IMG/VR virus record: IMGVR_UViG_3300045988_174111
Coordinates: 40,621 to 104,620 of that record
Direction: 5' to 3' (one strand)
DNA: 64,000 bases
Source: a virus
Made by a program: the position numbers and the translations under genes. Each line of letters begins with the position of its first letter. The first letter of the stretch is position 1. Shown in pieces: positions 9,101 to 52,541 of this stretch. The notes beneath the pieces are model-generated. The model searched no databases, was not told the origin of the DNA, and saw only the letters and a list, made by a program, of their open reading frames with translations.

Positions 9101-10662
9101 TTCCACCCGTATCGTTCTTCCATGTATTTCTTGACACGAGGACGGTCTTCCCCAGGATAGTCACAGTCAATATCAGGAAGAGATACCTTAACACGACCTG
9201 CATTCAAGAAACGTTCAAAAAGTAGATTATACCTCATCGGGTCTAACTTCGTAATTCCAAGAAGATAGGAAACAAGACAGCCCCCAGCAGAACCACGGCT
9301 GATTCCAGTCATTATCCCATTTCTGTGACACCAATTAATAATATCCCACGTAATTAAGAAATAATCAATTGCATCACCCAATTTGATAACCCCTACTTCT
9401 CGGTCTATTCGCTCCATAATAACCTCTTCACCCCAATCCTCAATGAGGTCTGGGTGACGGTCAAGCCCATCCGATATAAGAGACCAAAAGAGGTCTTCAT
9501 TCGTTTCAAATTTCTTGGCTTCTTCTTTTGTCATTTTATAACGCGGTAAATGTCTTTTTTTAACGTCAATGACAAAAGTAATAGATTCGGCAATACTTTC
9601 AAGAAATTCCAAACCTTCTGTGAACCTTGAATAGACATCCATAAGGCCTTCATCTGTGTCTGGAAACATCTGTGAAAGCTCTGTAAATAATTGGTCGTTT
9701 GATTTGAAATATTGATTATCACTTTCGTATGCCGTTGTCCCTCCAATACTATGTAGGCGAGGCCTTATACAACTGTATTCTTCATCCAAATACCAAGCAT
9801 CAACCGACGGAACAGGTAGCAAATTTCTATCCATGAAGAACTTTTTCAAGTTCTTCAAATACCATTCGTCCCTACTGTTATCAACATATTCACATGGGTC
9901 AAGCTGATAGATAGCAGCATCCAAATTTAAACTTGATAAAACATCATAATCTAAGGTTTTGGGGTCCAGAAACAAAATCAAATCATCATTATCTCTCGTA
10001 ATTTGATTAAAATCTTGAAGGCCAATGTATTTTGGATTGTCACAGTTTATGAACTTATTTATCGTCAAAAGGTCTTTCCACCCCTTATCATTTCTTGCAT
10101 ACACTTTTACTGTGAATCTAATATCTCTTGGCTGGTCATATACGGTGCATTCCATCCCAATTATACTTTTCAGGCCGTTCTTTTGACATTCTGCCTGAAA
10201 CTTCAAAGAACCAGCTAGCGAATTCTTTTCACAAATCCCTAAAGTGTTAACTCCAAGAAATTTAGCTTTTTTACACCAATCAGAATACGTCCCGGAACCA
10301 GACATCATCTCATATTGGCCATGAACCCCAAGAAATACTTTAGTTTCAAATTCTTGTTTTGCAGCTCCAATATACTTCAATCGTGTCAACTTGACATCAT
10401 TTTCTTGCCCTTTTGACAACATGTAATACACCCCTCCAAATCGGTAAGCATAGAAGTCACAGTTTGTCTCAACTGTTCCATCTTCAGCCCCACGATTGGG
10501 GTCAGCAGGAATTCCAACAAAATTGAAACTGTCATCAAACATCGCTCCGTCAAAGGCTTCTTTATACAGCTCAAAAGTCTTGCCGCCAATTTCAACTATA
10601 TAGTCGGATAATTGTGTATAATCAAGTAAATTTTTTTCAAGGTATTCTTTAAATCTTTTCAT
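6196..10662 (-). CDS. dnaE: DNA polymerase III alpha (DnaE-type, PHP domain) interrupted by an intein
   Basis: PHP-like N-terminal region (LGVHGQYEMM...GICEKNSLAG). Palm and finger motifs GISRGSAGGCLVSYLLGIT, NLLFERFLN, SLPDIDCDY and ISLYRPG. The TYGVF / CYQEQIMQL...ADDVRKAMVKKK junction matches E. coli TYGIILYQEQVMQ once residues 770-1098 are removed. Confidence 0.9.
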   Translation of the reverse strand: MKRFKEYLEKNLLDYTQLSDYIVEIGGKTFELYKEAFDGAMFDDSFNFVGIPADPNRGAEDGTVETNCDFYAYRFGGVYYMLSKGQENDVKLTRLKYIGAAKQEFETKVFLGVHGQYEMMSGSGTYSDWCKKAKFLGVNTLGICEKNSLAGSLKFQAECQKNGLKSIIGMECTVYDQPRDIRFTVKVYARNDKGWKDLLTINKFINCDNPKYIGLQDFNQITRDNDDLILFLDPKTLDYDVLSSLNLDAAIYQLDPCEYVDNSRDEWYLKNLKKFFMDRNLLPVPSVDAWYLDEEYSCIRPRLHSIGGTTAYESDNQYFKSNDQLFTELSQMFPDTDEGLMDVYSRFTEGLEFLESIAESITFVIDVKKRHLPRYKMTKEEAKKFETNEDLFWSLISDGLDRHPDLIEDWGEEVIMERIDREVGVIKLGDAIDYFLITWDIINWCHRNGIMTGISRGSAGGCLVSYLLGITKLDPMRYNLLFERFLNAGRVKVSLPDIDCDYPGEDRPRVKKYMEERYGWNQVCSVGTYSALQLRAAIKDMARVYGLDFQSTNEMMKAFDVKDRKPEDLFKIACANSKVKNFVKSHPDLINEVMLIMPAPKAQSIHACAMMVFPDENDMFRWVPIRKSGDEYVTEWEGGEMDAAGFLKEDVLGVKQFDKFQDMVRLVKEHEGVDLDIFSIPLDDKEVYRYFKNGWNEDNFHFGSSGLTGYCKQMKPDNIEDLIAAISLYRPGAMENNFHNEFVVRKEGKKEIEYFVGTESILNNTYGVFCIAENSEVLTLNGIKKIQDIIPGDMVKTEDGSFQKVLLLKNNGVKKTVRVRSNFGRELVCTPDHKILTKRGWVEAQNLVKNDELKCWFEKPVRIDSLTEREKLEHWLIGYFIAEGTSTHSSPYFTVSNLEIANRLRELLLELDSDFEVTIKERSQVKKSGNVGKSIRVTVKAVSGKSNGFFSKNYQENKFNSLLKKYGLYLKNCYEKRLPSNYSLDMIAGVLEGDGCLKNDTLKMCNNSLLEDIYFALQSYQIHSSIFPRLNKLTVSWKDLFYCLPYRMLSKKKISRKSPTNYMWGRVKEVVHDEERVVYDISVENIHSFTVGGIIVHNCYQEQIMQLCRELGGLSLVEADDVRKAMVKKKYEALQQYKERFIPYYRDNYNVTQEYSEKVWDAIDKASTYLFNRSHAAAYAITGYISQWIKVHYPIEYWSVAFKYALDTDYSRYIAEINKTGVCTVRPVDINVSDVDVVINFEEKALYWSITGVKQVAEKAATQIIKERKENGQYWSLNDFITRHKWKGSAVNNRIIRNLILAGAFDKLEGITDISKRIDLLVDFLVGVKAEVKDDDPVLSGADLHANDSWWWALLQKQVSGLAFFDYQQIFERFKSEFPDAYEFANVEDCNDTDSRPNNGYVVVSGYVSDMEIKKTRKGDTMCRLILEANYEFLEVIIFQQEYEQLASLLEGSRSNLIIINGCLSYDNRKDSNILRANFETNIVTLTL
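7369..8355 (-). mobile_element. Intein (329 aa) with a double-motif LAGLIDADG homing endonuclease, inside DnaE
   Basis: Starts with CIAENSEVLTLNG (block A). Block B is CTPDHKILT. LAGLIDADG motifs are LIGYFIAEGTS and MIAGVLEGDGCL. Ends with VYDISVENIHSFTVGGIIVHN, with Cys at +1. I checked the codons: aca (C) at 8353-8355, att (N) at 7369-7371, gca (C) at 7366-7368. Confidence 0.9.
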
Positions 10663-38643: not shown

Positions 38644-40302
38644 TTAATTTCCTAAAACAAAACCAGTGAAGAAAATCTTTGTAACTTCACTATTCACAAC
38701 AACTTCATAAGTGACGTTATAATAGTCCTCAATTCTAGTAGCCACTACATTCTGGAAACGCTGTATCAAGTTATCCTGATTTTCCGTAGCAACTCTTGAC
38801 TGGAGGAAATTAATTGTCCAAGTTTCCAAAGACCCTTTAGACAGGGTATTGATATTCACACCATTTTCATCCCCCAATAAATCAATTTCTGCATTGACGA
38901 CACATTCTTTATTCAGTTGTGCAATTATTCGCATAAATTGAATGCTGAATGACAGACCTTTTGCATTGAATAACGTTTTGTTATCCTGCAAAGTAGTAAT
39001 CCCCTGAAGAATGACGAAACGACCTAAGAATGGATTCGGGTAAACAACAACCAATCCTGCATTAACGGCCTTTTCGCGTTCTTTTTCATCTGGAACGTGT
39101 TGAAGTTTATCTCCTCCAATTGTCTTATTAGTGACAGGGACATAAGGCGGCTTTCCGCTTACTCGGCCAATCACCTGACATAGATTATAGAATACGCCCC
39201 ACCAACGAACTTTAGAAGCAACTGCATCACTCGCTGTTCCAATTCCGCCATGAACACAAACTACATAAGCATTATTAAACTTCTTAGCCATTGCTAAAGA
39301 TTCAGCAAATTTTGTTTTACTGTCATGAGCACCGACATAAACAAACTTATCAAACTTTGCTTGAGTATTTCTGTGGGTAATTACTTTCAAATTCTTTGCG
39401 CTGCTTCCAGAATCGCCAACTTGGTCTGTGAAGACAATGTTATAATCAACATCTGAAATTTGATTCAACAAGTCGTCCAAATCAGTTTCTTTATATTGTT
39501 CCGTAGCACCAGTTGCAACCTGATACTCGGCACTTCCTTCAATGTCCGCAGAATCTACAGTTCCATCCCCTTGTATTTCGCTTGATTCATCTAAGATAAA
39601 TCGTGCGCCAAAATTTTCATCGGTCTGGCACCAAGCAATAACTTCTGCAAGTGAAGTACATTCCGGAGTCTGACAAATCAATTGTGGCTCGGCCTGTTCA
39701 ACTGTCAATTCATCATACGAAAGTTCTACCCCAGTAACGGGGTCTTTATAAGAACCTGTATATGTTCCAAGCCAAAACTTCATTACGAATGCTTCGGGGT
39801 CTTCGGTTCCGGCCTCTACTGTATAAGCATAGCCAGTCTTTAACAATTTTCCCTCGAGTTCACCATTTGCATTCAAACCTTCATCAATTGTCTTAACAAT
39901 TAAAGAACCTCCGTTAGAGCCTCCACCAGTTGGTGAAAACGTCATTGTTGCAGGAGTAGTTGTACACGCTCTCGCATAAAGCAATTTACTGATTCCAACT
40001 GAATCAGAATTATACGGGTCAGGAGTAAATAATGCCTCAGCACATTTCCAAAACATCCCACCTTTTACAAAATCACGAAAATCTGACAGTGTCTCAAATT
40101 CATACACTGCATCTTTTCCCTGTTTGTTAGTTCCATTAACACCAGAACCTCCTCCAAATTTAGCCCCGTAGACTCCTGTATCGATTAACAATACAGTTCC
40201 ATAATCTAAATTTCGAGAAGCACTACTCGCCCCAGAAGTAATCGTAGAATAAACCCCAGGAAGAGTTCTCATTTTCCCATTAAAATAGACACTTGTCGCC
40301 AT
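38644..40302 (-). CDS. Contractile tail sheath protein
   Basis: The N-terminus MATSVYFNGKMRTLPGVYSTI has the sheath-like PGVY motif. 552 aa. A tube-sized ORF follows. Confidence 0.7.
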   Translation of the reverse strand: MATSVYFNGKMRTLPGVYSTITSGASSASRNLDYGTVLLIDTGVYGAKFGGGSGVNGTNKQGKDAVYEFETLSDFRDFVKGGMFWKCAEALFTPDPYNSDSVGISKLLYARACTTTPATMTFSPTGGGSNGGSLIVKTIDEGLNANGELEGKLLKTGYAYTVEAGTEDPEAFVMKFWLGTYTGSYKDPVTGVELSYDELTVEQAEPQLICQTPECTSLAEVIAWCQTDENFGARFILDESSEIQGDGTVDSADIEGSAEYQVATGATEQYKETDLDDLLNQISDVDYNIVFTDQVGDSGSSAKNLKVITHRNTQAKFDKFVYVGAHDSKTKFAESLAMAKKFNNAYVVCVHGGIGTASDAVASKVRWWGVFYNLCQVIGRVSGKPPYVPVTNKTIGGDKLQHVPDEKEREKAVNAGLVVVYPNPFLGRFVILQGITTLQDNKTLFNAKGLSFSIQFMRIIAQLNKECVVNAEIDLLGDENGVNINTLSKGSLETWTINFLQSRVATENQDNLIQRFQNVVATRIEDYYNVTYEVVVNSEVTKIFFTGFVLGN

Positions 40303-40385: not shown

Positions 40386-43300
40386 TCAAGAAATTTTCCA
40401 AGAAGTATTTGTCGAAATTGAAAATTTGCTTGAGCCTCCAGTAGCCCCAAAAGATAAACTCGTAGGAGAAACGTCAAGATACAAAATTTTCGCAACCAAA
40501 TTTCTCGCTCCATTCACCGTAAATGAATAAGACAGATTTGAGCTTACCTTTCTACCATTTTCATACCAGCCATCAAAGACATCCTGGCTATTCTTTTTCG
40601 TACATGTTACAGTTGCCTGAGCCCCATAATTATAGGAACCACCTCCAGACACTGAGCCTCGACTAGAAGAAGAGCTTTCCATACCAATCGAAACTGTATA
40701 TGATTTAACGCTTCGAGTCCCTCTTGCTTCAAGTGTCAATGCTCCAGTAATATTAGTTGGGGCATAAGTTACTCCGGAAGAAACCTTCGAAGAACCATTA
40801 TACCAACCGTCAAATCCGTATGAATACTGAGCATTACTTGCCATAACCGTAGCAGTAGAACCTTGAGCATTAGAACCATAATTAACAGATTCACTTGCTC
40901 GGCTTACGGAAGAAATATAATTCCCTTTGTTATAAGTAACTGTATAGCTTCTCAAAGTACGAGTTCCTTTAGCCAAGTAAGTAGCATTTGCAGTTACCCC
41001 CGTAGGCGCAAAAGTCGCCCCAGAAGAAACCTTCGAAGAGCCATTATACCAACCGTCAACCCCATACGAATATTGGGCAGTAGTTGAATTAACCGTCATT
41101 GTTGAACCAACAGCATTTGTGCCATGCGCAACACGTTCTGACGAACGGCTCACACTTGTCACATAATCTCCAACTTGATAAGTTATTGTATAATATTTTT
41201 TCGTAAATCTTGCATAAACTATCACTGACGAAGTCACGTTCGAAATTGTATATGACAAGGAACTACTCAACAAAGAACCTCCACTTTCCCCAGCAGAATA
41301 CCACCCATCAAAATTATAACCAGCAGCCACTGAAGCAATAACAGTTGAATTGGCTCCATGATTAACTGTGCCTCCACCAGAAACAGTTCCACCGCTTGTC
41401 CCAAGTGTATAGTCCCCTGTTCCATCTGTATTGCGATAATATGCTTGTGGAGTTACAGTATAAGAATTTAGAGTTGCCTTAGCTGTAAGAGACATATTTG
41501 ACCTAACATCTGTGGGAGCATACGTCAAAGACGACGACTTTTTCGTTTCCCCTTCGTACCATCCATCAAATGTGTACCCCTCTATCACTGTCGCAGTACA
41601 CCCAACTGCATTTCCACCCCAATTCACAATTTCAGATTCTCTACTAATTGTGTCAATTCCAGTTCCCTTCAAATAAGTTACTGTATAAGAATTTATTGAA
41701 TATTCCGCAGTATATGTAGCGTCTCCAGTAACAGTAACTTCTCTTGACTTGGTCGTCACACCATCAGACCACTTCACAAATGCTTTTCCTTCTATTTCCA
41801 AAGCCGAAATCGTAACCTTTGTTCCATAATCATAAGTTCCGGAACCTGTTCCGTCAACAACTGTCAGCGTATATTTTCTCAATGAAGAAACTCCTCTTGC
41901 TTCGAAACTTCTATCTGAAGAAATATTCTCAATACTTAATATCAAATCTTCTCCAACCTTTTCACCATTTTCGTACCAGCCATCAAAAGAATAAGCCAAT
42001 TGAACCGTATTCTCAAGAAGAGTCGCTTCACATGTTGCAGTTCCACCATAATTAACAGATTCACTTTCTTTAGTAAGCGAAGCAATATTCGCATTCTTAG
42101 AATAAGAAATCGAATAAACATTGATAGTCGCAGAAGCAACCAATGTGCAATCTGATTGAATTGCTGATAATGTTGCAATTCCATCTAAAACATTCAAAGT
42201 TCCAGTTCCTGAAGTTTTTTCCCAAGTTGGAGTATTGTACCCAGTAGAAGCAACAGCCTTTTCAGAAGTTACTGTGCCATTATATGCAACTCTTTCAGTT
42301 GTTTTTGTTAAATCAACAACTCCAACTCCTTTAGAATAGGTGACAGAAAACCAATTTTTCTGAAATCTTGCATAAACTGTCATTGAAGATGTGATATTCT
42401 CCACCTCATAAGTTGAAGAATCACTAATTCGAGTATCCTCAGAATTATACCAGCCTTGAAAAGTATAACCAACCTTTGCAGAAGCGGTTAAAGTCGCTTT
42501 AGAGCCATAATCATACTCTCCCGAACCAGTCACTGTTCCTCCATTCGTTCCATCCGTAAACGAACCAATAGAATCCGCATCACGGTACTGGGGTAAACAT
42601 TCAATTGAAAAGGTTTTTATTACCCCCTTTGCAGTAAATTCTAAATTTTCCCTCACATTCAAAGGAGCATATTTTAACTCCTGACTGACACGAACCTCTT
42701 CTTCATTGTACCATCCATCAAAATTATACCCTTCTTCTAATTCTGCAACTGAACCCTCAGCATTGGAACCATATTCAACAGCTTCAATTTCAGGAGTAAC
42801 TGAAATAATTCCTTTCCCTTTCTTGTAAGTAACTGTATTGACAGACATTCCAAAAGAAGCAGCATAAGTTTCATCTTTCGTCACATTCGTAACGGTAAGC
42901 TCTAAAGTTTCAACCCCATTACTCCATCCACTAAATAAATGACCCGTATCAGGTGTGGCAGTAGAAGAAGCTGACCCACCATATTCCACACGGGCTGAAG
43001 TCGGGGACACTGTTCCTCCTGGGCCAGCAATAAATTTCAACGTGAACCACATACGCTGAAACCTAGCAGTCAAATTCCTTGAAGAATCCGCATTAAATGT
43101 ATATGACAAATCTTCAGAAATTTTCAATTCTCCATCATACCAACCATCAAACGAATAACCCTCGCTTGGAACTGCTTCAATCGTAACACTTTCTCCATGA
43201 TTAAAAGTTCCTCCACCAAAAACGGTTCCACCGTTCTCACCATCAAGAAAATCACCTGATTCAGCAATTCTATATTTCGACTTCAGATTAATATCGTAAC

Positions 43301-44273
43301 TCTTAATTTGAAAAATTGCCTGAATAGTTCTATTTTTAGTAATTTCCCAACTAGAATAAGGGTTTTCAAAAAACTCGTTACCTTCTTCGTCAATCCATTT
43401 TATAAAATTATATCCAACGGCAGGATTCGCGGTTGATTTAATCAGAGAACCATAATCATAATTTCCTGAACCAGCTACTGTTCCAGAACCCTCTGGGGAA
43501 ATTACAAAAGATAAAGAATATCTATTTGTTTCTCTTGACCCAATCGCTGTAAATGTCCTGTCTGAAACAATATTTTCAATATTTAACAATAAATCAGAAG
43601 AAACCTTTTCGCCACCTTCGTACCAGCCTAAAAATGAATAAGAAAATTGGGCTGTATCTGAGGGTATTGTTGCAACTGCTGTTGCAGAACCACCCCACTT
43701 AACTGTCTCAGAAATCTTGTCAATTGATTTAATATGCTCCCCCTTTTGATAAGAAATTGTATATGTAGAAGATTCCTGAATAATTGTCACTTCTTCTGAT
43801 ATCAATGATGAAAAGCCCGTAACGGCAATCTTACCAATCCTCTGGCCAACAGTATTTTTAGGAATAAGAAATTCCGCATAAAAGTTAAATTCTCCTTTAG
43901 CTCCAGGGTCTCCAGAAATATCACTTCCATTCTCAGTACTCAGCCCATTTGCAATGTAATTTTCTGGAATTTGAAAAGAAATCCCATTCCCTTTCCCAAA
44001 AGAAAAAGTAATATTTTTAGAATTGCTTTTCCCAGAAATAACAACTTTTTGCTGATTCTGACTAATAGTAAATAAAGTTTTATCTAAAATTATATATTCA
44101 GGGGAAGCCTCTTGCTTCACCTGATATGATTTAGCTGATTCAACCTTATCAGTAATTGCAATCACTGCCGTCTCCCTCACGAGACGGCCTTTATGTTCTT
44201 CTCCTGTATTTATTAAAGTTGAATCCCCTATTCCACTAGAGGGGGAAACTTCAAGCCAAGATTCTTTTCCCAT
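40386..44273 (-). CDS. Giant surface-repeat protein: BACON C-terminal half, about 14 Listeria-Bacteroides-type (F-x-GW-Y) repeats, then BACON N-terminal half
   Basis: 1,295 aa. The N-terminus ESWLEVSPSSGIGDSTLINTGEEHKGRLVRETAVIAIT looks like the second half of a BACON domain. An FDGWY/FSGW/FVKW motif recurs about every 80 aa, roughly 14 times. The C-terminus LYLDVSPTSLSFGATGGSSKFSISTNTSWKIS looks like the first half of a BACON domain and then stops at TGA. Confidence 0.75.
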   Translation of the reverse strand: MGKESWLEVSPSSGIGDSTLINTGEEHKGRLVRETAVIAITDKVESAKSYQVKQEASPEYIILDKTLFTISQNQQKVVISGKSNSKNITFSFGKGNGISFQIPENYIANGLSTENGSDISGDPGAKGEFNFYAEFLIPKNTVGQRIGKIAVTGFSSLISEEVTIIQESSTYTISYQKGEHIKSIDKISETVKWGGSATAVATIPSDTAQFSYSFLGWYEGGEKVSSDLLLNIENIVSDRTFTAIGSRETNRYSLSFVISPEGSGTVAGSGNYDYGSLIKSTANPAVGYNFIKWIDEEGNEFFENPYSSWEITKNRTIQAIFQIKSYDINLKSKYRIAESGDFLDGENGGTVFGGGTFNHGESVTIEAVPSEGYSFDGWYDGELKISEDLSYTFNADSSRNLTARFQRMWFTLKFIAGPGGTVSPTSARVEYGGSASSTATPDTGHLFSGWSNGVETLELTVTNVTKDETYAASFGMSVNTVTYKKGKGIISVTPEIEAVEYGSNAEGSVAELEEGYNFDGWYNEEEVRVSQELKYAPLNVRENLEFTAKGVIKTFSIECLPQYRDADSIGSFTDGTNGGTVTGSGEYDYGSKATLTASAKVGYTFQGWYNSEDTRISDSSTYEVENITSSMTVYARFQKNWFSVTYSKGVGVVDLTKTTERVAYNGTVTSEKAVASTGYNTPTWEKTSGTGTLNVLDGIATLSAIQSDCTLVASATINVYSISYSKNANIASLTKESESVNYGGTATCEATLLENTVQLAYSFDGWYENGEKVGEDLILSIENISSDRSFEARGVSSLRKYTLTVVDGTGSGTYDYGTKVTISALEIEGKAFVKWSDGVTTKSREVTVTGDATYTAEYSINSYTVTYLKGTGIDTISRESEIVNWGGNAVGCTATVIEGYTFDGWYEGETKKSSSLTYAPTDVRSNMSLTAKATLNSYTVTPQAYYRNTDGTGDYTLGTSGGTVSGGGTVNHGANSTVIASVAAGYNFDGWYSAGESGGSLLSSSLSYTISNVTSSVIVYARFTKKYYTITYQVGDYVTSVSRSSERVAHGTNAVGSTMTVNSTTAQYSYGVDGWYNGSSKVSSGATFAPTGVTANATYLAKGTRTLRSYTVTYNKGNYISSVSRASESVNYGSNAQGSTATVMASNAQYSYGFDGWYNGSSKVSSGVTYAPTNITGALTLEARGTRSVKSYTVSIGMESSSSSRGSVSGGGSYNYGAQATVTCTKKNSQDVFDGWYENGRKVSSNLSYSFTVNGARNLVAKILYLDVSPTSLSFGATGGSSKFSISTNTSWKIS
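40461..40502. repeat. Direct repeat copy A (42 nt, 2 mismatches to copy B)
   Basis: cgtaggagaaacGtcAagatacaaaattttcgcaaccaaatt. Copy B lies exactly 3,900 nt away. Weaker similarity extends over about 200 nt, covering the C-terminal FDGWY repeat plus the half-BACON of both ORFs. Confidence 0.85.
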
Positions 44274-44285
44274 ACATTCTTTTTG

Positions 44286-44816
44286 TTATTTTATATTCCA
44301 AGAAACATTCGAGTCAACTCTAAACTCCGAATTTCCTCCAACAGCTTCAAATTCCAATGACGTAGGAGAAACATCGAGATACAAAATTTTCGCAACCAAA
44401 TTCACTTCATTTTCAACGGTAAATGAATAAGTAGCTTCTGAGGAAACCTTTTCACCACCTTTATACCAACCATCAAAAACATCACCCTCTTTTAAAAGAT
44501 TGCATTTTAATACCACTTTTTCCCCCACAGCAACTTCTTTTGAAGCATTCGTCCCAGCTTCTCCATTATCAATTTCAACCGATGCCCTTGAAGTTACGTC
44601 AGAATTCAATGAAATTGAAATTAAAAAAGACCCTTTTTGAATGTCCTTCAATAAAATAAAATCATTATCACCATAAGAAGACAAAGGTTCTTTGTCAAAT
44701 TTCCCAGCAGAAATGAGTTCCTTTTTCCGAACAAAATTCTTTTCAGAAACCCCAATGTCCTCAGGGGTAATTCCCACAATATCTGCAGCCTGTTTAGAAG
44801 TTGAATAATTTTCCAT
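44286..44816 (-). CDS. Protein ending in one F-x-GW-Y repeat plus the N-terminal half of a BACON domain (possibly the upstream part of a read-through fusion)
   Basis: Start trimmed to MENYSTSKQ (ATG at 44814-44816), just after the upstream TAA. The C-terminus is DVFDGWYKGGEKVSS...ILYLDVSPTSLEFEAVGGNSEFRVDSNVSWNIK-TAA. The next ORF is in the same frame. Confidence 0.65.
   Translation of the reverse strand: MENYSTSKQAADIVGITPEDIGVSEKNFVRKKELISAGKFDKEPLSSYGDNDFILLKDIQKGSFLISISLNSDVTSRASVEIDNGEAGTNASKEVAVGEKVVLKCNLLKEGDVFDGWYKGGEKVSSEATYSFTVENEVNLVAKILYLDVSPTSLEFEAVGGNSEFRVDSNVSWNIK
44361..44402. repeat. Direct repeat copy B
   Basis: cgtaggagaaacAtcGagatacaaaattttcgcaaccaaatt. It sits in the same codon phase as copy A, since the 3,900-nt offset is 1,300 codons. 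Confidence 0.85.
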
Positions 44817-44818
44817 AA

Positions 44819-45043
44819 TTAAGTTGTTTTTCCAGCACCTTGCTGGCAATCAACAAATTTTTTAAAAACAATATTCCCAGAAACTGAATTGATTTTATCA
44901 ATCAAACCTTGTCCAGTTAACTTGTCAAGAATATTCTTTTCTGTCAAACTATCTAAGATACTAGAAGGGTTCTCCTGCTGTTTCTGAACAGCAGATAAAA
45001 GTTCATCAACTTTTGCCCCAGTAAATTTCGATTTATATGCCAT
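44819..45043 (-). CDS. Hypothetical protein
   Basis: 74-aa ORF, co-oriented with its neighbours. Confidence 0.5.
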   Translation of the reverse strand: MAYKSKFTGAKVDELLSAVQKQQENPSSILDSLTEKNILDKLTGQGLIDKINSVSGNIVFKKFVDCQQGAGKTT

Positions 45044-45069: not shown

Positions 45070-45537
45070 TTATACAAATTTTTCCCATTCCACATGAATT
45101 TCTTTTTTCATCATATCATTTATCCATTCATCAAAAATCTTTCCTTCATGTCCATTTGGGTTCATTAGCATTTTGTAAGCGGTATCAAAACAAGAAATTT
45201 CCTCTTTAATTGGAGTTGGAACAAACATAGAATATGACAAATTGGCCAAATAAACAACGTCGCCCATAAGTTTTTCTGGGACAGAAAAGCCAAGATTCTT
45301 CATTGCCTTCTTAACCTGTTCAAAAGACCAAGTATGCTGATAATTATTTGAATTTTTCAGCATTTTACTCGCATATTCAGATAATTTCTCATTGAAATGG
45401 TACCCGTACTTCCCCAAATATTTCTGATACGCTTCATCGGAAGCCAGCTCAATATATTTGTCATTTAGACTCATGGTAGGAGCTGGGTTCATGCTTTTCA
45501 GCAATTTCCGAATTATAATATACTTCAAGAATATCAT
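45070..45537 (-). CDS. Hypothetical protein
   Basis: 155-aa ORF. Confidence 0.55.
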   Translation of the reverse strand: MIFLKYIIIRKLLKSMNPAPTMSLNDKYIELASDEAYQKYLGKYGYHFNEKLSEYASKMLKNSNNYQHTWSFEQVKKAMKNLGFSVPEKLMGDVVYLANLSYSMFVPTPIKEEISCFDTAYKMLMNPNGHEGKIFDEWINDMMKKEIHVEWEKFV

Positions 45538-45541
45538 AACA

Positions 45542-46042
45542 TCACTGTTTTGGGTTAAAGTTTTTCAAAACTTTCTCAAACATTTCTTGCTGGGTTTGAA
45601 GCATATCTTTCATTTCTCTGACAGAAGTCTCAATCTGACTAAATCTCTTTTCGGTTTCTTGTTTCTCTTTTAGAACCGGATTCAATTCCATTAAAAGCTT
45701 TGAACTCTCTTCCAAATCTTTTTCTACCTTCGGACGCTCCTTCAAATACTGCTCTGCTTTGTTTTTTATAGCTTCCAGCTCACTGATTATACCATTCTTA
45801 TCTGTTGCTAATATGATGTCCCCAGAAGATGAAATACACAAATTTTCAGGAACAATGTATGTCGCGCTCTTATCTCCGGCCTCAATAACTAAATCGACAA
45901 CCATTTTCCCCATTGTCATTGGATTTGTATTATCGATATGCGGGAATGTATTTGAAACAACGCGCCCCTCTGTATAGGAGAAATTTTGTTTATCCAAAAT
46001 GTAAATCGGATAACTCTGCTTAACATCTCTGAATTGTAACAT
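45542..46042 (-). CDS. Hypothetical protein
   Basis: 166-aa ORF with a coiled-coil-like C-terminal half. Confidence 0.55.
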   Translation of the reverse strand: MLQFRDVKQSYPIYILDKQNFSYTEGRVVSNTFPHIDNTNPMTMGKMVVDLVIEAGDKSATYIVPENLCISSSGDIILATDKNGIISELEAIKNKAEQYLKERPKVEKDLEESSKLLMELNPVLKEKQETEKRFSQIETSVREMKDMLQTQQEMFEKVLKNFNPKQ

Positions 46043-46063
46043 AATTTTCTATTTTTAAATAAA

Positions 46064-46090
46064 AGAGCCTCAAACAAATATTGAGGCTCT
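46064..46090 (-). terminator. Rho-independent terminator
   Basis: Perfect 10-bp stem agagcctcaa/ttgaggctct with a 7-nt loop. On the minus strand it is followed by TTTATTTAAAAAT. It lies 21 nt after the stop of the 139-aa ORF. Confidence 0.75.
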
Positions 46091-46110
46091 TTCTGTTATT
46101 CAACCATAAT

Positions 46111-46530
46111 TTATGAAGCAGCGGCAGCAGCTTCAATAGATACGACGATAGAATCATTAATCAACATACAGTTACCTTGCGCACGTACTAATCTCCCTAC
46201 AGATGTAATCGTTGGTTGAACAGTCGGCAACGCTGTTTGCCCCTGAAACGCAACATCAAAATGTTCCGTAATAGGTTGCCCGTTGTTGTTACATCCGCAA
46301 TTATTGAACTGAGGAATGTTGATTGTTGCAGTTATCGGTACGTAAACGGTACTTCCTGATAGAATAGGAGTTCCGCTTGCGTATTGAATCGTGACAGGAA
46401 TATTGCTTGCCGCTCCCATCATTGAACATACTGATTTACACAACTTTTCTCTGAATGTTGCCATAGTTGACAACTGGTTAGCAGTCAGTGCTGTTGTTGC
46501 TAACCCTACTGGGGATAATGATACTGACAT
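46111..46530 (-). CDS. Hypothetical Ala/Thr/Cys-containing protein (moron-like unit)
   Basis: 139-aa ORF, visibly more GC-rich than the flanking genes. Bracketed by a promoter motif and a strong terminator. No recognised motif. Confidence 0.6.
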   Translation of the reverse strand: MSVSLSPVGLATTALTANQLSTMATFREKLCKSVCSMMGAASNIPVTIQYASGTPILSGSTVYVPITATINIPQFNNCGCNNNGQPITEHFDVAFQGQTALPTVQPTITSVGRLVRAQGNCMLINDSIVVSIEAAAAAS

Positions 46531-46548
46531 AGCTATACCCTTTCATCA

Positions 46549-46674
46549 TTAATAGCCGATACCATTACCACCGCCAAAAAGACCGTTACCACTGTTTGCA
46601 CCTGCCATAAAAGGCAACCAACTACTGCCCCAACCATTGTCGCAACAGTAAACTTTCTCCATTGTAGAGTCCAT
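46549..46674 (-). CDS. Small Gly/Cys/Trp-rich peptide (41 aa)
   Basis: Below the ORF-track size cutoff. My translation is MDSTMEKVYCCDNGWGSSWLPFMAGANSGNGLFGGGNGIGY-TAA. It lies 42 nt downstream of a TAATTTTG promoter motif and 18 nt upstream of the 139-aa ORF. Confidence 0.4.
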   Translation of the reverse strand: MDSTMEKVYCCDNGWGSSWLPFMAGANSGNGLFGGGNGIGY

Positions 46675-46715
46675 AAATAAAAAATTTAAATTAATAATTT
46701 AAGTTAACTACACTA

Positions 46716-46723
46716 CAAAATTA
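46716..46723 (-). promoter_or_regulatory. Bacteroidota-type -7 promoter element (TAATTTTG on the minus strand)
   Basis: Plus strand caaaatta within the 391-nt non-coding gap 46531-46921. Confidence 0.4.
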
Positions 46724-46921
46724 CTAATTTTATTTTTCAATAAAAACTTCACATCAATACATCAGAACACCTCTCCCCTCTAAATAATCAAAATGCTGCA
46801 AGGAATTTTATGCGCTCCCCGATAGCACATCTTACATGGCTGGTTAAATCCAATGCGGCCTTCTTACAACCGTACCTTGCAACATTTTTCTAAATTATTT
46901 TTTATTTTCCTAGTTAAAAAC

Positions 46922-47155
46922 CTACAGACACCCGATAACAATACCCACCGCATCGGCTATCAGGTCTTTCTTGTCGAATGTACCTTTCTTCAAAAACTTG
47001 TCCCACGCGAATTCCTTGGCTATACCGATGAAAGCTGCAATCAGTACAGCAATCCACATCGGAAGAAAGATATTCACTAAAACTACAATAAGATTGCTCA
47101 CAATTATATGCTTCAATCCATCAAATCCAAAATAATCGAAAACTTTGTTTATCAT
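46922..47155 (-). CDS. Small membrane protein with 2-3 TM segments (holin candidate)
   Basis: 77 aa. Hydrophobic stretches HIIVSNLIVVLVNIFL, PMWIAVLIAAFIGIA and LIADAVGIVIGCL. Confidence 0.35.
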   Translation of the reverse strand: MINKVFDYFGFDGLKHIIVSNLIVVLVNIFLPMWIAVLIAAFIGIAKEFAWDKFLKKGTFDKKDLIADAVGIVIGCL

Positions 47156-47421
47156 ATCTCTTCTTCTTTATTACTCCATTTCTCACTTTTAAGTAGATTA
47201 TTCAATTCATCTGTATTATATTCATAATTTGGATAAGTCCATTGGATAACTCTATTCTCATCCGTAGGAAGAATACTCATATCTAATGCTTGTCTTTTTT
47301 CTAAAAGAGTTTCTTCATGTACGATTACCTCTGTTCCATCAATACTCTTTCTATGAGTTTCTAATTCTTTTTCTGTGAAGATTATTTTAGCATCTTCTAT
47401 AGGTAACACAATAAACTTCAT
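47152..47421 (-). CDS. Hypothetical protein
   Basis: 89-aa ORF with an ATGA overlap with the membrane-protein gene. Confidence 0.5.
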   Translation of the reverse strand: MKFIVLPIEDAKIIFTEKELETHRKSIDGTEVIVHEETLLEKRQALDMSILPTDENRVIQWTYPNYEYNTDELNNLLKSEKWSNKEEEI

Positions 47422-47441
47422 ATTTCTTTAAATTTAATGGT

Positions 47442-48101
47442 TTAACTTACTTCTATTTCATCTACTCCGTCTAATAAATTATATTTCTTGATTATAGCAT
47501 TTATTTGTTCTTCGGTTAGAGCTTCTTTGAAGCCGAGGAATTTGTAGAGTGCCATATCGCTATAATATCCTGAATTGGTAGCATTAGCCCCAATAGTCGG
47601 TCTACTTTCTTGTACTTCATCATTAGTTAATACGTAAATAAGTTGTTTTTTATTAATTAATTCATTAACTTTAATACTACGATTTAACATTCCATTAATA
47701 AAAGTATCATATTTATTTCTCTCGCAATATGCTACAAAATTACCATTGTTAAAAAAAATGGCATACTCCATATATTTCTCTAAAGTATTTTTTCTTTGGT
47801 CGTATAATATCATGCCACCTAATTTTTTATACAATGGATTACAAAGCATAAACATAGTCTTAAACCCACTATCAAAAGCATCAAGATTTACATAATCATC
47901 TACGCCATCAAAGACTAATGCACCATCCTTATATCCACTACCTTGTTCATTCCAAGCAAAGTTATGAGCAACAGCATCATTTCCATTACCACTATAATCC
48001 TTTATAGTATCTCTTGTTTCATCATCATTACTTCCTTGACTAAAATCATAATAACAATCAGGAGTAGGAATTTTCAGATGGAAGAAGATATTCGGGGTCA
48101 A
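47442..48101 (-). CDS. LamG-like (concanavalin-type jelly-roll) domain protein
   Basis: DYSGNGNDAVAHNFAWNEQGSGYKDGALVFDGVDDYVNLD is typical of phage LamG-domain proteins. It is a paralogue of the disrupted gene upstream. Confidence 0.6.
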   Translation of the reverse strand: MTPNIFFHLKIPTPDCYYDFSQGSNDDETRDTIKDYSGNGNDAVAHNFAWNEQGSGYKDGALVFDGVDDYVNLDAFDSGFKTMFMLCNPLYKKLGGMILYDQRKNTLEKYMEYAIFFNNGNFVAYCERNKYDTFINGMLNRSIKVNELINKKQLIYVLTNDEVQESRPTIGANATNSGYYSDMALYKFLGFKEALTEEQINAIIKKYNLLDGVDEIEVS

Positions 48102-49143
48102 TATATTTTCTAATAAATGCTTTTATTTCTTGTTCGTCTAAGCTGCGGTCGAAGAGATAGGTGGAGTAGAAAGCAAAATTAGAACGTCCCATATGATTAT
48201 CTCTAACAATCCCAATCCATAATTTATTTCCATCTATGCCATTTCCTGATAATATGTTATCACCATTATATACATTTTTATTTGCATAAGAAATTTCTGA
48301 ATCCAAATGATTTACATTATTCATCATACCATAATTCCAAACCTCCATTTTATTTGTACCAAGATTATTTTTTTTCAAATATAAATGCTCCTCGACCAAC
48401 AGAATATGATTTTGATAAAATACAAAAATCTTTTTTATAATCAAGAATTTCTCTTTTGCAGATAATAGTATAATCCGTCAAAATCGGCATATTCTCATTA
48501 ATACCATAATCATCTACTCCGTCAAATATTAGAGCATCAGGGTATTCGGGAAGAAGTTCAATAAGAACATCGCATGTTATTGATTCATTAGTATTTTTTA
48601 TTATAATGTATCTATAATAATCAATATTTTCATTTAACTGATTTATTTCATAAATACCATCTTGCGTTATATTAATTATTTCTGTTATTTTAGAACCTAC
48701 TACATAATCAATTTTAAAACTAGTGACATTCCCAGTTATACCTTTTACTTTTATTTTATATTTTGGTAAGTTGGATAATTTGGTTTTTTCTATAAAAACA
48801 ATACTTGTTATATTTTTTACAATTTGAGAAATATGTATTGTATGTTCACTTATTTCTTTTATATAAAAACTATCGTCTTTGGTAATCCAATTTTTATAAT
48901 TAGCCCAATACCCCCCTACCCACTCATCTCACTAAAAGCAAATCCATTCAAAGTAATATCATGTCCATTACCTGTCAAATCTTTAAGAGTTGCTCTATCT
49001 GCATCATCATTAGTTTTACCTTTTGCTGACCATGCGGCAATAAGACCTGGATAAGAAATAGAGCCTCCTGAACCCCCTTTTCCCTTCAGCCTTCTGTATT
49101 TAAACAGGCTTATTCCAAGCCCTAAATTCATTCCTAAACTCAT
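48058..49143 (-). pseudogene. LamG-like domain gene split into three reading-frame segments (pseudogene, phase-variable gene or recoded gene)
   Basis: Segment 1 (49143-48919) ends ...LKDLTGNGHDITLNGFAFSEMSG-TAG. Segment 2 has no ATG and lies in the -1 frame. It reads WVGGYWANYKNW...PDALIFDGVDDYG...GRGAFIFEKK-TAA. Segment 3 returns to the frame of segment 1 and reads NNLGTNKMEVWNYG...FDRSLDEQEIKAFIRKY. The frame switches sit at GGG-TA-GGGGGG (48911-48921) and at the A8 tract (48368-48375). Confidence 0.7.
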
Positions 49144-49145
49144 AA

Positions 49146-49478
49146 TCAGATTCCAATTGACAATTTAGTAACAGTTGTCCCCTCAAAAATTATCGTGTCA
49201 ACAAGATACAGCATAGGGGTGCCAATGAACGCACTCACTTCTTCCGAAGAAATTGTATATATTTCACCAGTATTTCCTGAAAGTTTCACTTTAATCACCC
49301 CTTCTGAAAGAGGAATGATTATAAATGGAAAGTGCTTTCCGTTATTCCCTTCAACAAAAATGTCTTCTGCTATTTCTTGAAAATTCCAAGCCTGACTAAT
49401 AGTATTTGGAGAAACCAATCCATTTGGATTTGTACTCTGAACTTTATTCAATCCAATTGTAATTATATCCTTTTTCAT
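49146..49478 (-). CDS. Hypothetical protein (neck or tail module)
   Basis: 110-aa ORF. Confidence 0.55.
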   Translation of the reverse strand: MKKDIITIGLNKVQSTNPNGLVSPNTISQAWNFQEIAEDIFVEGNNGKHFPFIIIPLSEGVIKVKLSGNTGEIYTISSEEVSAFIGTPMLYLVDTIIFEGTTVTKLSIGI

Positions 49479-49533
49479 AACCGTAAAATTTTATTGAAAA
49501 TACAAGTTTTATTTTTAAAACCAAAATCAAAAA

Positions 49534-50184
49534 TCATTCCTTTATGGAAATAGCATCTCTAATCACAAATTTTTTCACGATTTCAGGGCGAATAATCGAA
49601 CAATAGTCATCAATGCCCTCAACTTCAATAGATACATTTTTAATCAAAATTGGCTGTGGGAACAATGAATTTTCAGCAATAAGCTCATTCATACTGAAAT
49701 TAAACTTTATAAATTCCTCTTCTAAAGTATTACGAGCTCCTACCAGCAATGCATAAAGCACTTCCCCAATCAAAATTGACTCAAGCATATTCTCACTAAG
49801 GCACATCAAATCAATTTTTGACAAAGCTGGCTGCCGAAAACCTTCCCTTTCATATTCAGGCTTTCCATATGCGTCAAGTGTCATTTCTCCAAAGCCCCCT
49901 AAAGGTGATTCTATATTCTGAGAGCGTCCTGGCTCTCTAACTATAATACAAGGAAGGTGAGTTTTATCTTTAGGATATTCCATTTTCACCTGTAATTTTC
50001 GAGGTGAGGAATTCGCCCTTAAAAACAATTTTTTTGCTTGAGAATAAAAATCAAAACTTCCATCAGAAATTCCATAGAACATGTGATATAGAAAAGTTTC
50101 ACTTTCAGGAACATTTTCAAAATCATTCTGAACATAGCTCAGAAGCCCCTCGACCATTTGTTTTATTCTAGAAATAAGTATCAT
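49534..50184 (-). CDS. Hypothetical virion protein (neck or head-completion region)
   Basis: 216-aa ORF between the capsid and tail modules. Confidence 0.5.
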   Translation of the reverse strand: MILISRIKQMVEGLLSYVQNDFENVPESETFLYHMFYGISDGSFDFYSQAKKLFLRANSSPRKLQVKMEYPKDKTHLPCIIVREPGRSQNIESPLGGFGEMTLDAYGKPEYEREGFRQPALSKIDLMCLSENMLESILIGEVLYALLVGARNTLEEEFIKFNFSMNELIAENSLFPQPILIKNVSIEVEGIDDYCSIIRPEIVKKFVIRDAISIKE

Positions 50185-50189
50185 AAATT

Positions 50190-50957
50190 TTAAATTTGAC
50201 TTAAAAATTCATCAATAACTATATTTGCAACTTCGGAAATCTGTGATTCATCCAATGCTTTGTCCATAAATTTTTTCGCTTCAAACCCAGGATGAATCCA
50301 ACTTAATACGTCACTTTTATCGCTCACCCTCCTGAAAGTAAAATATCCGCCACGATTCTCTTGATTCGTAGAAGAAATGTCAATCCTAACAAGACCCTGA
50401 TATTTGGGGGCTTTGTGAACATATTCAGGAATTATTCCGTTTGAAGTTTGAATTGCCTTTCGCCGCCCAACCTGAGCATACTGTTCCGGGAGCTGAGACT
50501 TTTTCAGTGGTTGAATGCTTTTCTTTGCAATCCCATAAATTTCTTTAGGGAGCTGATTCTGAAAAATCATTGATTCTGCAACAGCTCCTGGAGTCGCATA
50601 TCTAAATGGTATTGTCAAATACCAACCCCCGTCCAATTTTACCTTCTTCTTTGAAGAACCTTGAAAACCAATTTTCTCATCAAACGGGGGTTTTCCTTCT
50701 TCAATCGCTAAAGCCAACCCATCTTCTCCAGGAGCCAAACCAAATACAACTTCCGTCGAGCTTACTCTGTCAACGTACATTGCCCTTTTATACAGCTTCC
50801 TTGTCTTCTGTAAGCCTCTATTTACAAGGTTTTCCCACTTGTGCGTATATTCGGTAACGATTCTATTTATAATCTCGCTACCGAGCGATTCAGCCTGAGC
50901 ACCAGTTAGTGCGAACTCAGCAACAATCTCACTTAAATCAACGTGTATCGGTATCAT
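50190..50957 (-). CDS. Hypothetical virion protein (neck or head-completion region)
   Basis: 255-aa ORF. Positional call. Confidence 0.5.
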   Translation of the reverse strand: MIPIHVDLSEIVAEFALTGAQAESLGSEIINRIVTEYTHKWENLVNRGLQKTRKLYKRAMYVDRVSSTEVVFGLAPGEDGLALAIEEGKPPFDEKIGFQGSSKKKVKLDGGWYLTIPFRYATPGAVAESMIFQNQLPKEIYGIAKKSIQPLKKSQLPEQYAQVGRRKAIQTSNGIIPEYVHKAPKYQGLVRIDISSTNQENRGGYFTFRRVSDKSDVLSWIHPGFEAKKFMDKALDESQISEVANIVIDEFLSQI

Positions 50958-51744
50958 CGTTGTGTATTATCCCACCTCCATCATAATTAGGGCGTTGAAT
51001 GTCAATTAAATGGGTTCTTCTTCCAATTGCCTGAATCGGCATCTTTAATATTTGGAATTGACCGCTCTTTTTATCCTTACCTAAAGAAGCACGAATTTCA
51101 TGAGGTAAATCAATAATGTGATATTCAACCCTATGCTTGTATAGCACAGAAACACCAGCTTCCGGTCGAACCTTCCCTGTTTTAAATCTAAGGCAATACG
51201 GATTTTCCGGAACTATCTCATAGTCAGAAGCCGATAACTTAATAAGAGGCAAATCGGAAGACTCATAAATGTACACTGCCACGATACCGTTCTCTATTGG
51301 GGCATAAGAAAGAAAAACAGCAATCTCATCACCTATCATCTCTTTCGCAACTAACATTTCCGTAAACGAAGCATATTCGTCCTCAACAGTCACCCTGTCA
51401 AAATAGGAAAGAAAGTCTTTGTCTTCATCTCGAACAGTAATTGATGCAGTCCCCATTAGTTCAGGAGACCACTGGACATACTGCGTATTTCGATTCAATC
51501 CAGTAATTAACGCTTTTGTCCGAGTTGGGTTTATGAAAAAATACCCAAACCCATGGCAATTTTGACAGTCTGGCAAAGGACTTCCGGAATCGCCTTGACA
51601 TGGGCATCTTATTGCTTTCTCGCAAATTATATCATAGCCATGTGACCAAATAACTGAATTAAAGTCATTGGGGCGAAATGAAACCTGTGGCTGGCCATAC
51701 AAAGATTGGTCAGGAGCGTTTGAAATAAATCTTTCGTTCATCAT
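50938..51744 (-). CDS. Hypothetical virion protein (neck or head-completion region)
   Basis: 268-aa ORF with a CPCQGDSGSPLPDCQNCHGFG Cys cluster. Positional call. Confidence 0.5.
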   Translation of the reverse strand: MMNERFISNAPDQSLYGQPQVSFRPNDFNSVIWSHGYDIICEKAIRCPCQGDSGSPLPDCQNCHGFGYFFINPTRTKALITGLNRNTQYVQWSPELMGTASITVRDEDKDFLSYFDRVTVEDEYASFTEMLVAKEMIGDEIAVFLSYAPIENGIVAVYIYESSDLPLIKLSASDYEIVPENPYCLRFKTGKVRPEAGVSVLYKHRVEYHIIDLPHEIRASLGKDKKSGQFQILKMPIQAIGRRTHLIDIQRPNYDGGGIIHNDDTDTR

Positions 51745-52541
51745 ACAACAACCATACGAATTTCGTCATACACTAATTTCAATCTCTTTACAGTCTCTTT
51801 TATTTCACGCTCATACTGAACCAAACGTGCCCCGTATCCCGCATTTGTGGCAGAAGATGTCGAACTAATTGATTGGCTCAACCCATCAACACCTAGAGAC
51901 TGAGAAGCAATACCCGCACCAAGAATCAAGTCTCCGGCAACACCTAGAGGGCCAAAGGTCGCTAATTTTCCAGTAAGATTTATCAAGTCCATTGGCATAT
52001 GGTCAATATCGAAACCAGTAATGTACTGAAAATCCCAATAGTCAGGAATCATTCTGAAATGCTGACTTCCCAATTGAGTAGTCAATCCACTCAGAATCAC
52101 TTCTGCATTAGCAGTTGCAACAGCCGAACCAGTCGGAACAATTGAAACTCTTCGCTTAAATAAGCCATAACTATTTTGATGAGTTGTAAGCCACTGTGTC
52201 GGATAGGAAATTTGTTCCAAATTATTGAACCGACCCGTCAACGAAATCGGCTTGTTGACGGGGTAATTCGTGAATAAAATTGGAAAACTTTGCCAATAAT
52301 CTGCTCGATAAAATGTCAACTTCTCTTGGTCAATGAATTGACGCATCAATTTAAGATTGAAAAAATTCTCAACTTCTTTCTGCGCTGCCTGAATATAGAA
52401 CCTCATGCTTTCATTGCTAAATGATGTTCCATCTCCGCCCTGTATAGTTATCCCATACAGATACAAGGAAAAAATTTCAGAGGGGTTAAATATCATCCCA
52501 GTGTTTTTCCGATACTTCATTGTCAAAACAAGTTGTCCCAT
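51741..52541 (-). CDS. Hypothetical virion protein (neck or head-completion region)
   Basis: 266-aa ORF with an ATGA overlap with the next gene. Confidence 0.5.
   Translation of the reverse strand: MGQLVLTMKYRKNTGMIFNPSEIFSLYLYGITIQGGDGTSFSNESMRFYIQAAQKEVENFFNLKLMRQFIDQEKLTFYRADYWQSFPILFTNYPVNKPISLTGRFNNLEQISYPTQWLTTHQNSYGLFKRRVSIVPTGSAVATANAEVILSGLTTQLGSQHFRMIPDYWDFQYITGFDIDHMPMDLINLTGKLATFGPLGVAGDLILGAGIASQSLGVDGLSQSISSTSSATNAGYGARLVQYEREIKETVKRLKLVYDEIRMVVV

Follow-up and report, generated by a model that had tools for sequence, protein, structure and literature searches.

A BACON domain divided between consecutive phage structural genes at a conserved gene boundary

How does a stop codon come to lie inside a recognizable protein domain? 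This question was raised by a locus in a stretch of 64,000 nucleotides (nt) of virus DNA (IMG/VR record IMGVR_UViG_3300045988_174111, positions 40,621 to 104,620; the whole stretch is called the window below). On the minus strand of the window, a small gene, named A2 here (176 amino acids, aa), ends in TAA and is followed 12 nt later by a large open reading frame (ORF) in the same frame, named B2 (1,295 aa). A first-pass annotation of the window had placed the first half of a BACON domain before this stop and the second half after it, and had offered read-through of the TAA, a recent nonsense mutation or a recombination scar as explanations. The junction was found to be as described there. A2 ends in ...NLVAKILYLDVSPTSLEFEAVGGNSEFRVDSNVSWNIK-TAA, that is, ...AKILYLDVSPTSLEFEAVGGNSEFRVDSNVSWNIK before the stop at 44288..44286, and B2 starts with the ATG at 44273 and the protein sequence MGKESWLEVSPSSGIGDSTLINTGEEHKGRLVRETAVIAIT... 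in the same frame. The C-terminal peptide of A2 (..VDSNVSWNIK) stops 3 residues past a conserved Trp, and the N-terminal peptide of B2 is (M)GKESWLEVSPSSGIGDSTLINTGEEHK. The comparisons described below indicate that the stop is almost certainly a conserved gene boundary and not a read-through site, a pseudogene or a scar. The overall explanation that we favour, and hold to be probable though not strongly so, is that A2 and B2 are separate structural genes between which a BACON domain is split by design, with the halves assembling in trans.

The BACON halves on both sides of the stop were examined with profiles. Neither A2 alone nor B2 alone gave a Pfam match to BACON or to BACON_2 (PF19190, viral BACON; profile length 94, gathering cut-off 25 bits) at E<=1. 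The literal read-through translation matched BACON_2 across the stop (residues 147-201) with 22.9 bits, which is below the cut-off. When the A2 tail was joined to the B2 head without the QKEC spacer, the score was 33.4 bits (E 4e-8, positions 2-71 of 94), with the A2 tail supplying positions ~2-39. The tail of B2 joined to its own head scored 37.9 bits, and the joined halves of relatives scored 41.5, 36.3 and 36.3 bits over positions 2-93 of 94; in the relatives P0004, P0006 and P0008 the N-terminal half maps to positions 40-93 of 94. The profile alignment across the read-through translation contains two halves and not two complete domains, which bears out the first-pass annotation on this point, and a viral BACON domain is present in the two halves taken together but not in one polypeptide alone.

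Hidden Markov models (HMMs) of the half-domains were also searched against the six-frame translation of all 64 kb. Only three matches were obtained, namely the C-terminal end of A2 (E 1e-11), the C-terminal end of B2 (E 1e-9) and the N-terminal end of B2 (E 1e-11). Because the HMMs match only these three sites in 64 kb, the half-domain match is not due to chance. The second-half HMM matched B2 from residue 1, with E 8e-10 and 1e-11. The C-terminus of B2, ...NLVAKILYLDVSPTSLSFGATGGSSKFSISTNTSWKIS-TGA (..AKILYLDVSPTSLSFGATGGSSKFSISTNTSWKIS-TGA; ..STNTSWKIS before the stop), is a half-domain that ends at the same residue as A2 and is nearly identical to the A2 tail in its first strands; after it, only non-coding DNA is present until the tail sheath gene. 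As for the remaining parts, residues 1-62 of A2 are mostly helical and are followed by one Flg_new repeat (PF09479, residues 84-143; 24.6 bits, just under the cut-off of 27) and the C-terminal BACON first half. B2 consists, in order, of the BACON second half, a central immunoglobulin-like (Ig-like) domain, an Flg_new array (Flg_new_2 212.8 bits and Flg_new 137 bits, in 8-10 stretches; PF09479 and PF18998) and the C-terminal BACON first half.

The junction is identical base for base in the independent assembly ERR1110366 and the exact 176-aa A2 product is present on four long contigs, so that a sequencing error is excluded. The locus had no match by megablast against annotated phages, a scan of IMG/VR with the small ORF gave no confirmed relative, and the PHROGs contain no family for A2 or B2. 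Homologues of A2 with 177-179 aa and 56-61% identity were found. All nine full-length homologues found (P0274-P0282) have 176-179 aa, and a stop and a restart are present in all the contexts that were examined. The gene order in the relatives is a 74-84-aa gene, the small gene, the large gene and a 552-aa sheath gene. In the window the stop is TAA, the spacer 12 nt, the restart MGKESWLEV and the frame offset 0. In L001, L085 and L086 a double stop, TAG-TAA, is followed by a spacer of 25 nt and the start MAKDSWLTV at frame offset +1. L088 has TAA, 23 nt and MAKDSWLTV at offset +2, and L089 has TAA, 19 nt and MAMDSWLTV at offset +1. In every lineage so tabulated the small gene stops 2-3 residues past the conserved Trp and the large gene has its own ATG, and the window is the only one in frame; its 12-nt spacer is in frame by chance. 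Since the relatives keep the stop and use their own ATG in other frames, programmed read-through and a recent nonsense mutation are excluded as explanations of the architecture.

The large gene of the relatives encodes 355, 919, 1,294 or 1,391 aa, and both of its termini are as in B2. Across these otherwise syntenic relatives, and with the 1,295 aa of the window, the length of the repeat array is strongly variable. Because the length ranges from 355 to 1,391 aa and the termini are conserved, the termini of B2 appear as independent connectors rather than as parts of one chain that must meet. In one lineage, the 355-aa and the 1,294-aa versions of the large gene were observed behind the same small gene on different contigs.

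The explanations that treat the pair as one gene were weighed against these results. Programmed read-through of the TAA might still yield a minor fusion of ~1,476 aa besides the two separate proteins in this phage, given that the two ORFs are in frame here and only 12 nt apart and that the fused sequence retains 22.9 bits on BACON_2. Moreover, UAA-C is a comparatively weak stop context in E. coli. We nevertheless regard such a product as very improbable. The relatives are all out of frame, one of them with a double stop, and the large gene has its own conserved ATG; the first-pass annotation had itself proposed the comparison of orthologous loci, and what was found there was a conserved stop and an independent start. 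The frame offsets are random among the 54 junctions of the wider family described below. No tRNA gene, and hence none for a suppressor tRNA, was found in the 64-kb window. No stable RNA structure was found in the 121 nt around and after the stop, where folding equals that of shuffles (z = 0.47). Read-through would also stretch the loop at the junction, from 8 residues to 13. Among 59 long minus-strand ORFs of the window, TAA is the most frequent stop (TAA 35, TGA 17 and TAG 7); the major head gene and the sheath gene end in it, and the TAA-C context recurs in other genes. Genome-wide recoding of TAA, which had already been considered unlikely from the sequence, was ruled out by this stop usage.

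That one ancestral gene was split in this genome by a nonsense mutation, a recombination scar or an assembly artefact is extremely improbable in our judgement. This explanation could appeal to a direct repeat at a spacing of exactly 3,900 nt and to the fused relatives that exist in the wider family. However, the same split is present in lineages that are only 56-61% identical in protein, and the independent assembly has the identical junction. The "3,900-bp repeat" of the first-pass annotation is just 68 nt at 81% identity and corresponds to the C-terminal modules of A2 and B2, which are also present in the relatives at other spacings. Because these paralogous modules are conserved in relatives with a large gene of 355-1,391 aa, the repeat is not a recombination scar. 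For annotation, these results indicate that an in-frame stop within a recognizable domain need not signal recoding or decay.

We were particularly interested in whether the same arrangement occurs in other proteins. The read-through translation, used as a query, retrieved only proteins with the second half at their start and the first half at their end. These proteins, the B family, start with MAK.SW..V.PS.GSG and end, before the stop, with ..L.VS.T...L...G.AVSF.I.SNT.W.IS or ..SNT.W.I[SE] (P0001-P0008). Profile search placed at least 5,762 clusters (90% identity) in the family, with few exceptions of ~200 aa and on contigs up to ~100 kb. An exhaustive search of 1.8 billion representatives gave 3,349 clusters at 50% identity (E<=1e-3). 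Among the best 150 matches listed, 92 proteins have 260 aa or fewer and most match the profile from 1 to ~200, from their first to their last residue; the long matches are bacterial secreted BACON arrays with whole domains. Many members are crAss-like, and annotated members are found in Crassvirales, including a cr111_1 member labelled 'lipocalin-like protein, BACON binding domain'. Across 63 sequences, residues L172, V174, L181, G185, A187, V188, N195 and W198 of the half-domains are invariant. Pfam-style scans report only the N-terminal 'BACON' in these proteins, and the C-terminal half is overlooked. When PDB sequences were searched with the family profile, ordinary BACON second halves (e.g. 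3zmr) were the only matches, and there is no solved member. B2 has the following traits of the family: a second half at its Met, the signature GKSNS...ISGDPGA and a first half at the C-terminus, where the family is defined by a stop 2-4 residues past the conserved Trp. Its head aligns with P0001-P0008, and its central domain is 39-54% identical to these proteins; over ~41-48% of a 348-aa query, the identity to family members was 38-54%.

The genes next to the B genes were then compared in 63 unique loci from IMG/VR and metagenomes. Consecutive genes were designated A, B and C, where A ends in a first half, B has both halves and C starts with a second half; A2 is the upstream partner of B2 in this scheme. 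An HMM made from B tails only detected a first-half end on the upstream gene in 54 of the 63 loci (E<1). Downstream, a second-half start was detected in 48 of 58 with an HMM made from B heads only. Most of the misses look like the same type on inspection. The A-to-B frame offsets (16/16/22 over 54 junctions) are random and show no preference for a frame. The B-to-C spacers are often -1 nt, which is typical of translational coupling. The residues after the tail Trp and before the head Trp add up to 8 in 26 of 36 A-B junctions, and the window has a loop of 8 residues as well (NIK + MGKES); in the unsplit domains of B-B and A-B fusions the loop has 7-8 residues. Such natural fusions were found for A-B (P0270), for B-B (P0126, P0172, P0217 and P0133, the last with four units) and for B-C (P0137 and P0157). 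In each of them an intact BACON domain spans the very place at which other phages stop and restart, and the fused units are collinear with the gene order. By a Rosetta-stone argument, these fusions suggest that a single domain is formed from the tail of one product and the head of its successor. The fusions still begin with an open second half, and P0126, P0172, P0217 and P0270, but not P0133, also end in an open first half. Taken together, these results demonstrate two independent genes, a seam fixed in a BACON loop, halves that are complementary at the profile level, and collinear fusions.

Variants of the A-type tail were also observed. Some A-type proteins (in L046/L048 upstream of 3001, and in L081 upstream of 2976) carry two first-half-like units, e.g. 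..YVWLDEDSVGTQKIYSNTDWVLTVEGGEELFAFGSSHCWLNEITNKGTQEIHARQDIHWTLE before the stop. In the crAss-like loci L004 (~5855-5974; also L005 and L006) and L009 (~2853-2977), a first-half tail of 39-40 aa has no start codon and lies in the -1 frame, overlapping a coiled-coil structural gene (329 aa in L004) at its end. The slippery sequence GAT TTT TTT C is conserved in this overlap, and its flanks differ (CCG AAA TAG vs CAG ATT TAG). The L004- and L009-type tails are the only ones, 2 of 55 examined, without an ORF of their own, and a -1 programmed ribosomal frameshift is the probable means by which a half-BACON tail is added in these crAss-like relatives. The 329-aa coiled-coil protein of L004 had no relative in the PDB, and no link to the head fibres of crAss001 was made.

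Structures were predicted with AlphaFold2 (AF2). For A2 (9-sequence alignment), the predicted local distance difference test (pLDDT) score was 84-96 at residues 63-145, where the Flg_new domain is well folded in the model, and 56-68 in the terminal half-domain. This drop is consistent with an incomplete fold that lacks its partner. The AF2 monomer of P0004 (201 aa, 63-sequence alignment) had a pLDDT of 92 and a predicted template modelling (pTM) score of 0.76, and its central region, at pLDDT >90, was modelled as a beta domain of nine strands. Only generic Ig-like matches were obtained when this model was compared with the PDB by Foldseek. The model is compatible with pairing of the halves, for which a monomer predictor can use only the cis arrangement.

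From these observations, the following mechanism is proposed. A2 and B2 would share one BACON (Ig-like) domain, with the gene boundary in one of its surface loops, the first three or so strands on the C-terminus of A2 and the remaining four on the N-terminus of B2. During or after translation, the halves would assemble non-covalently into one BACON fold (fold complementation), and this pairing would tether the long Flg_new-repeat protein B2 to the small adaptor A2 and, via the adaptor, to the virion. B2 is likely to be an adhesin or fibre that is accessory to the virion. The same device may link consecutive A, B and C genes in many crAss-like and other Bacteroidota phages. We infer a trans reconstitution of BACON that links consecutive virion proteins because the A-B, B-B and B-C fusions hold an intact domain at the seams, and the loop lengths and the joint presence or absence of the partner genes support it indirectly; pairing in trans between neighbouring gene products seems to us slightly on the probable side.

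Several observations weigh against this mechanism. A B gene without any A-type or C-type neighbour is present in L043, and self-pairing must therefore be possible in some cases. Joins of an A tail with a B head, and of a B tail with a C head, score below joins of a B tail with a B head. The window has a single second half for its two first halves, which leaves one half-domain unaccounted for. Finally, the P0004 monomer was confident in both halves (pLDDT 85-92), as closure of a single chain would also give. Such closure in cis, a circular permutation in which the first half of a B-type protein folds onto the second half of the same chain, would leave the A2 tail as a competitor, as the partner of something else or, in A-B-C trios, as the partner of the C head. 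The compact P0004 model with confident termini would fit it, as would the lone B gene and the BACON_2 scores of the B-tail and B-head joins, which are the most canonical (36-41 bits), A tails and C heads being divergent; side-by-side antiparallel packing of two Ig-like domains would be geometrically feasible as well. However, the Pfam scores of A+B, B+C, B+B and A+C joins reflect only how canonical each half is and cannot discriminate a chain from cis closure, and a predictor restricted to monomers has no arrangement other than cis in which to pair the halves. On the other hand, the fusions follow the gene order, have the intact domain at the seam and mostly leave their ends open. Trans pairing is favoured over cis because the length of B2 varies between 355 and 1,391 aa with unchanged termini and because the head of B2 would otherwise have to wait for the whole chain of 1,295 residues, whereas the upstream tail would already be available. 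We therefore consider closure in cis unlikely, though not negligible.

The half-domains might instead be leftovers of gene fission from a longer multi-BACON protein, without functional pairing and with independent proteins. The existence of fused versions means that fission or fusion did occur. However, few parts of the family are as well conserved as the half-domains, as seen from the invariant residues, the seam is fixed to the residue across thousands of clusters, and the tail, B and C are gained and lost together. An unpaired half of a beta-sandwich with an exposed core would also be expected to be selected against, and we regard this explanation as improbable. The tail of B2 may be an orphan, bind the head of another copy, close in cis, or have its partner in the ~40 kb outside the window; no C-type gene with a second-half start was found downstream of B2 within the 64-kb window. 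It is conceivable, but rather doubtful, that B2 polymerizes head to tail from an adaptor start into a pilus-like adhesive filament of Ig-like beads without a chaperone, the split BACON being in that same joint proposal a general 'snap-fastener' with which phage appendages are built from consecutive gene products.

The features of the locus are listed in Table 1. The sheath gene places the pair in a myovirus structural module, and the 74-aa gene marks the insertion point of an A2+B2 cassette. A2 and B2 are both absent from two more distant genomes, MT835500 and Chryseobacterium phage MA9V-3; in MA9V-3 a 65-aa gene, whose homology to the 74-aa gene is assumed from its position, directly abuts the sheath gene. 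Because A2 and B2 are absent as a unit from these two phages, the cassette is accessory and its parts travel together.

Table 1. Features of the A2-B2 locus in window coordinates
Feature	Coordinates	Strand	Basis
Small gene A2, 176 aa + TAA	44286..44816	-	ORF translation; identical protein P0274 in public assemblies
BACON first half on A2 (residues ~141-176, ..LVAKILYLDVSPTSLEFEAVGGNSEFRVDSNVSWNIK)	44289..44396	-	First-half HMM
A2 stop TAA, conserved seam of the split domain	44286..44288	-	Stop at homologous residue in relatives
Intergenic spacer, 12 nt, CAAAAAGAATGT	44274..44285	-	Sequence
Large gene B2, 1,295 aa + TGA	40386..44273	-	ORF translation
BACON second half, B2 residues 1-56 (MGKESWLEVSPSSGIGDSTLINTGEEHKGRLVRETAVIAIT..)	44106..44273	-	Second-half HMM from Met
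B2 central Ig-like domain (..SGKSNSKNITFSFG...ISGDPGAKGEF..)	43764..44105	-	In common with the ~200-aa family
B2 array of Flg_new / InlB B-repeat domains	40497..43763	-	Pfam matches; internal direct repeats; length differs among relatives
B2 C-terminal BACON first half (..LVAKILYLDVSPTSLSFGATGGSSKFSISTNTSWKIS)	40389..40496	-	First-half HMM; paralogous to A2 tail
Tail sheath gene, directly downstream	38644..40302	-	PHROG 279 tail sheath, E 1.6e-22
74-aa gene, directly upstream of A2	44819..45043	-	Homologues at same place in L085, L088 and L089

A second set of such genes is carried by L085, L088 and L089. It consists of a 293-295-aa protein with C-terminal first-half-like units and then a 211-215-aa B1, followed by a C1 gene (86-94 aa) in L085 and L089; no C1 was called in L088. 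The window homologue of the first protein has 216 aa (49534-50184) and is without the ~78-aa C-terminal extension that holds two first-half-like units. B1 and C1 are missing from the window too, and ~nine unrelated small genes are present instead (regions compared: window 45070-50184; L085 3892-5755; L088 4051-5647; L089 3839-5722).

Other features of these regions were recorded on the side. Two overlapping TTG-start ORFs of 128 and 219 aa at 47442-48444 of the window are concanavalin/LamG-like (..DGALVFDGVDDYVNLDAF..) and could represent a single gene, either frameshifted or with its start misplaced. The body of the C-type protein in L003 is likewise a Laminin_G_3 domain. A homing-endonuclease gene (GIY-YIG/NUMOD3) lies between two head-module genes in L085 (1736-2332), L086 (1751-2326) and L001 (1154-1750); the window homologues of those head genes (266 aa, 51741-52541, and 268 aa, 50938-51744) adjoin, with no such gene between them. 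A 1,488-aa ORF at 6196-10662, on the same strand, happens to have the same codon count as the 44849-40386 read-through frame.

If halves do pair as proposed, the half-domains would provide a rule, readable from sequence, for which structural proteins of gut phages bind each other and in what order. This rule would cover thousands of genomes of crAss-like and other Bacteroidota phages with unresolved fibres and decorations. It would also correct the domain annotation and supply a natural split-Ig pair, which might serve as a protein-ligation or display tag.

Full-text searches of the literature gave no account of any Ig-like domain, BACON included, that is divided over consecutive phage genes, and nothing relevant on fold complementation in phages. 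Whole BACON domains in tandem within one crAssphage tail-associated protein were reported in the crAss-BACON paper (de Jonge et al. 2019, PMC6949934), the text of which does not contain 'split' or 'truncated' and uses 'partial' twice, for other things. Those domains resemble the present ones in belonging to the same fold family, in occurring in Bacteroidota phages and in lying beside structural genes, whereas the present domain is shared by two polypeptides, with the break in a fixed loop. In the cryo-electron microscopy structural atlas of crAss001 the fibres are unresolved. Apjok et al. 2026 (PMC13370021) found that small BACON and Ig-like proteins confer epithelial adherence when displayed, whether they come from crAss-like phages or from an unassigned group of myovirus-like gut phages; no sequences matching the B family are in the supplements of that paper. 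According to the account in PMC6949934 of Fraser et al. 2006, Ig-like domains are added to phage structural proteins, sometimes by programmed frameshift. The decorations described in that account and in PMC13370021 are likewise accessory Ig-like domains on virion proteins, but they are treated there as complete units in one protein.

The logic of the split BACON, as proposed here, resembles donor-strand complementation and end-to-end fibre joints. An in-frame stop between a short and a long structural coding region is also known from the A1 read-through protein of phage Qbeta; here, in contrast, the frame varies between relatives, the downstream gene starts on its own and a stimulatory element is lacking. 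In chaperone-usher pili and the type V pili of Bacteroidia, the incomplete Ig-like fold of a subunit is completed by a strand donated by its neighbour. The missing strands would likewise be provided in trans here, and the order would be set by which subunit carries which part. However, pili use a single strand together with a chaperone or protease, whereas here about three strands would complement about four, with no chaperone evident, and the partners are encoded by consecutive phage genes; membership of these pilus systems is not claimed. In the long tail fibre of phage T4, formed by gp34-gp35-gp36-gp37, the gene order is the assembly order and each N-terminus docks on the previous C-terminus. 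The T4 joints connect trimeric fibre proteins, and no single split globular domain is reconstituted in them. The likeness is that here, too, the gene order matches the proposed order of assembly, in which the N-terminus of one product would be placed onto the C-terminus of the preceding one.

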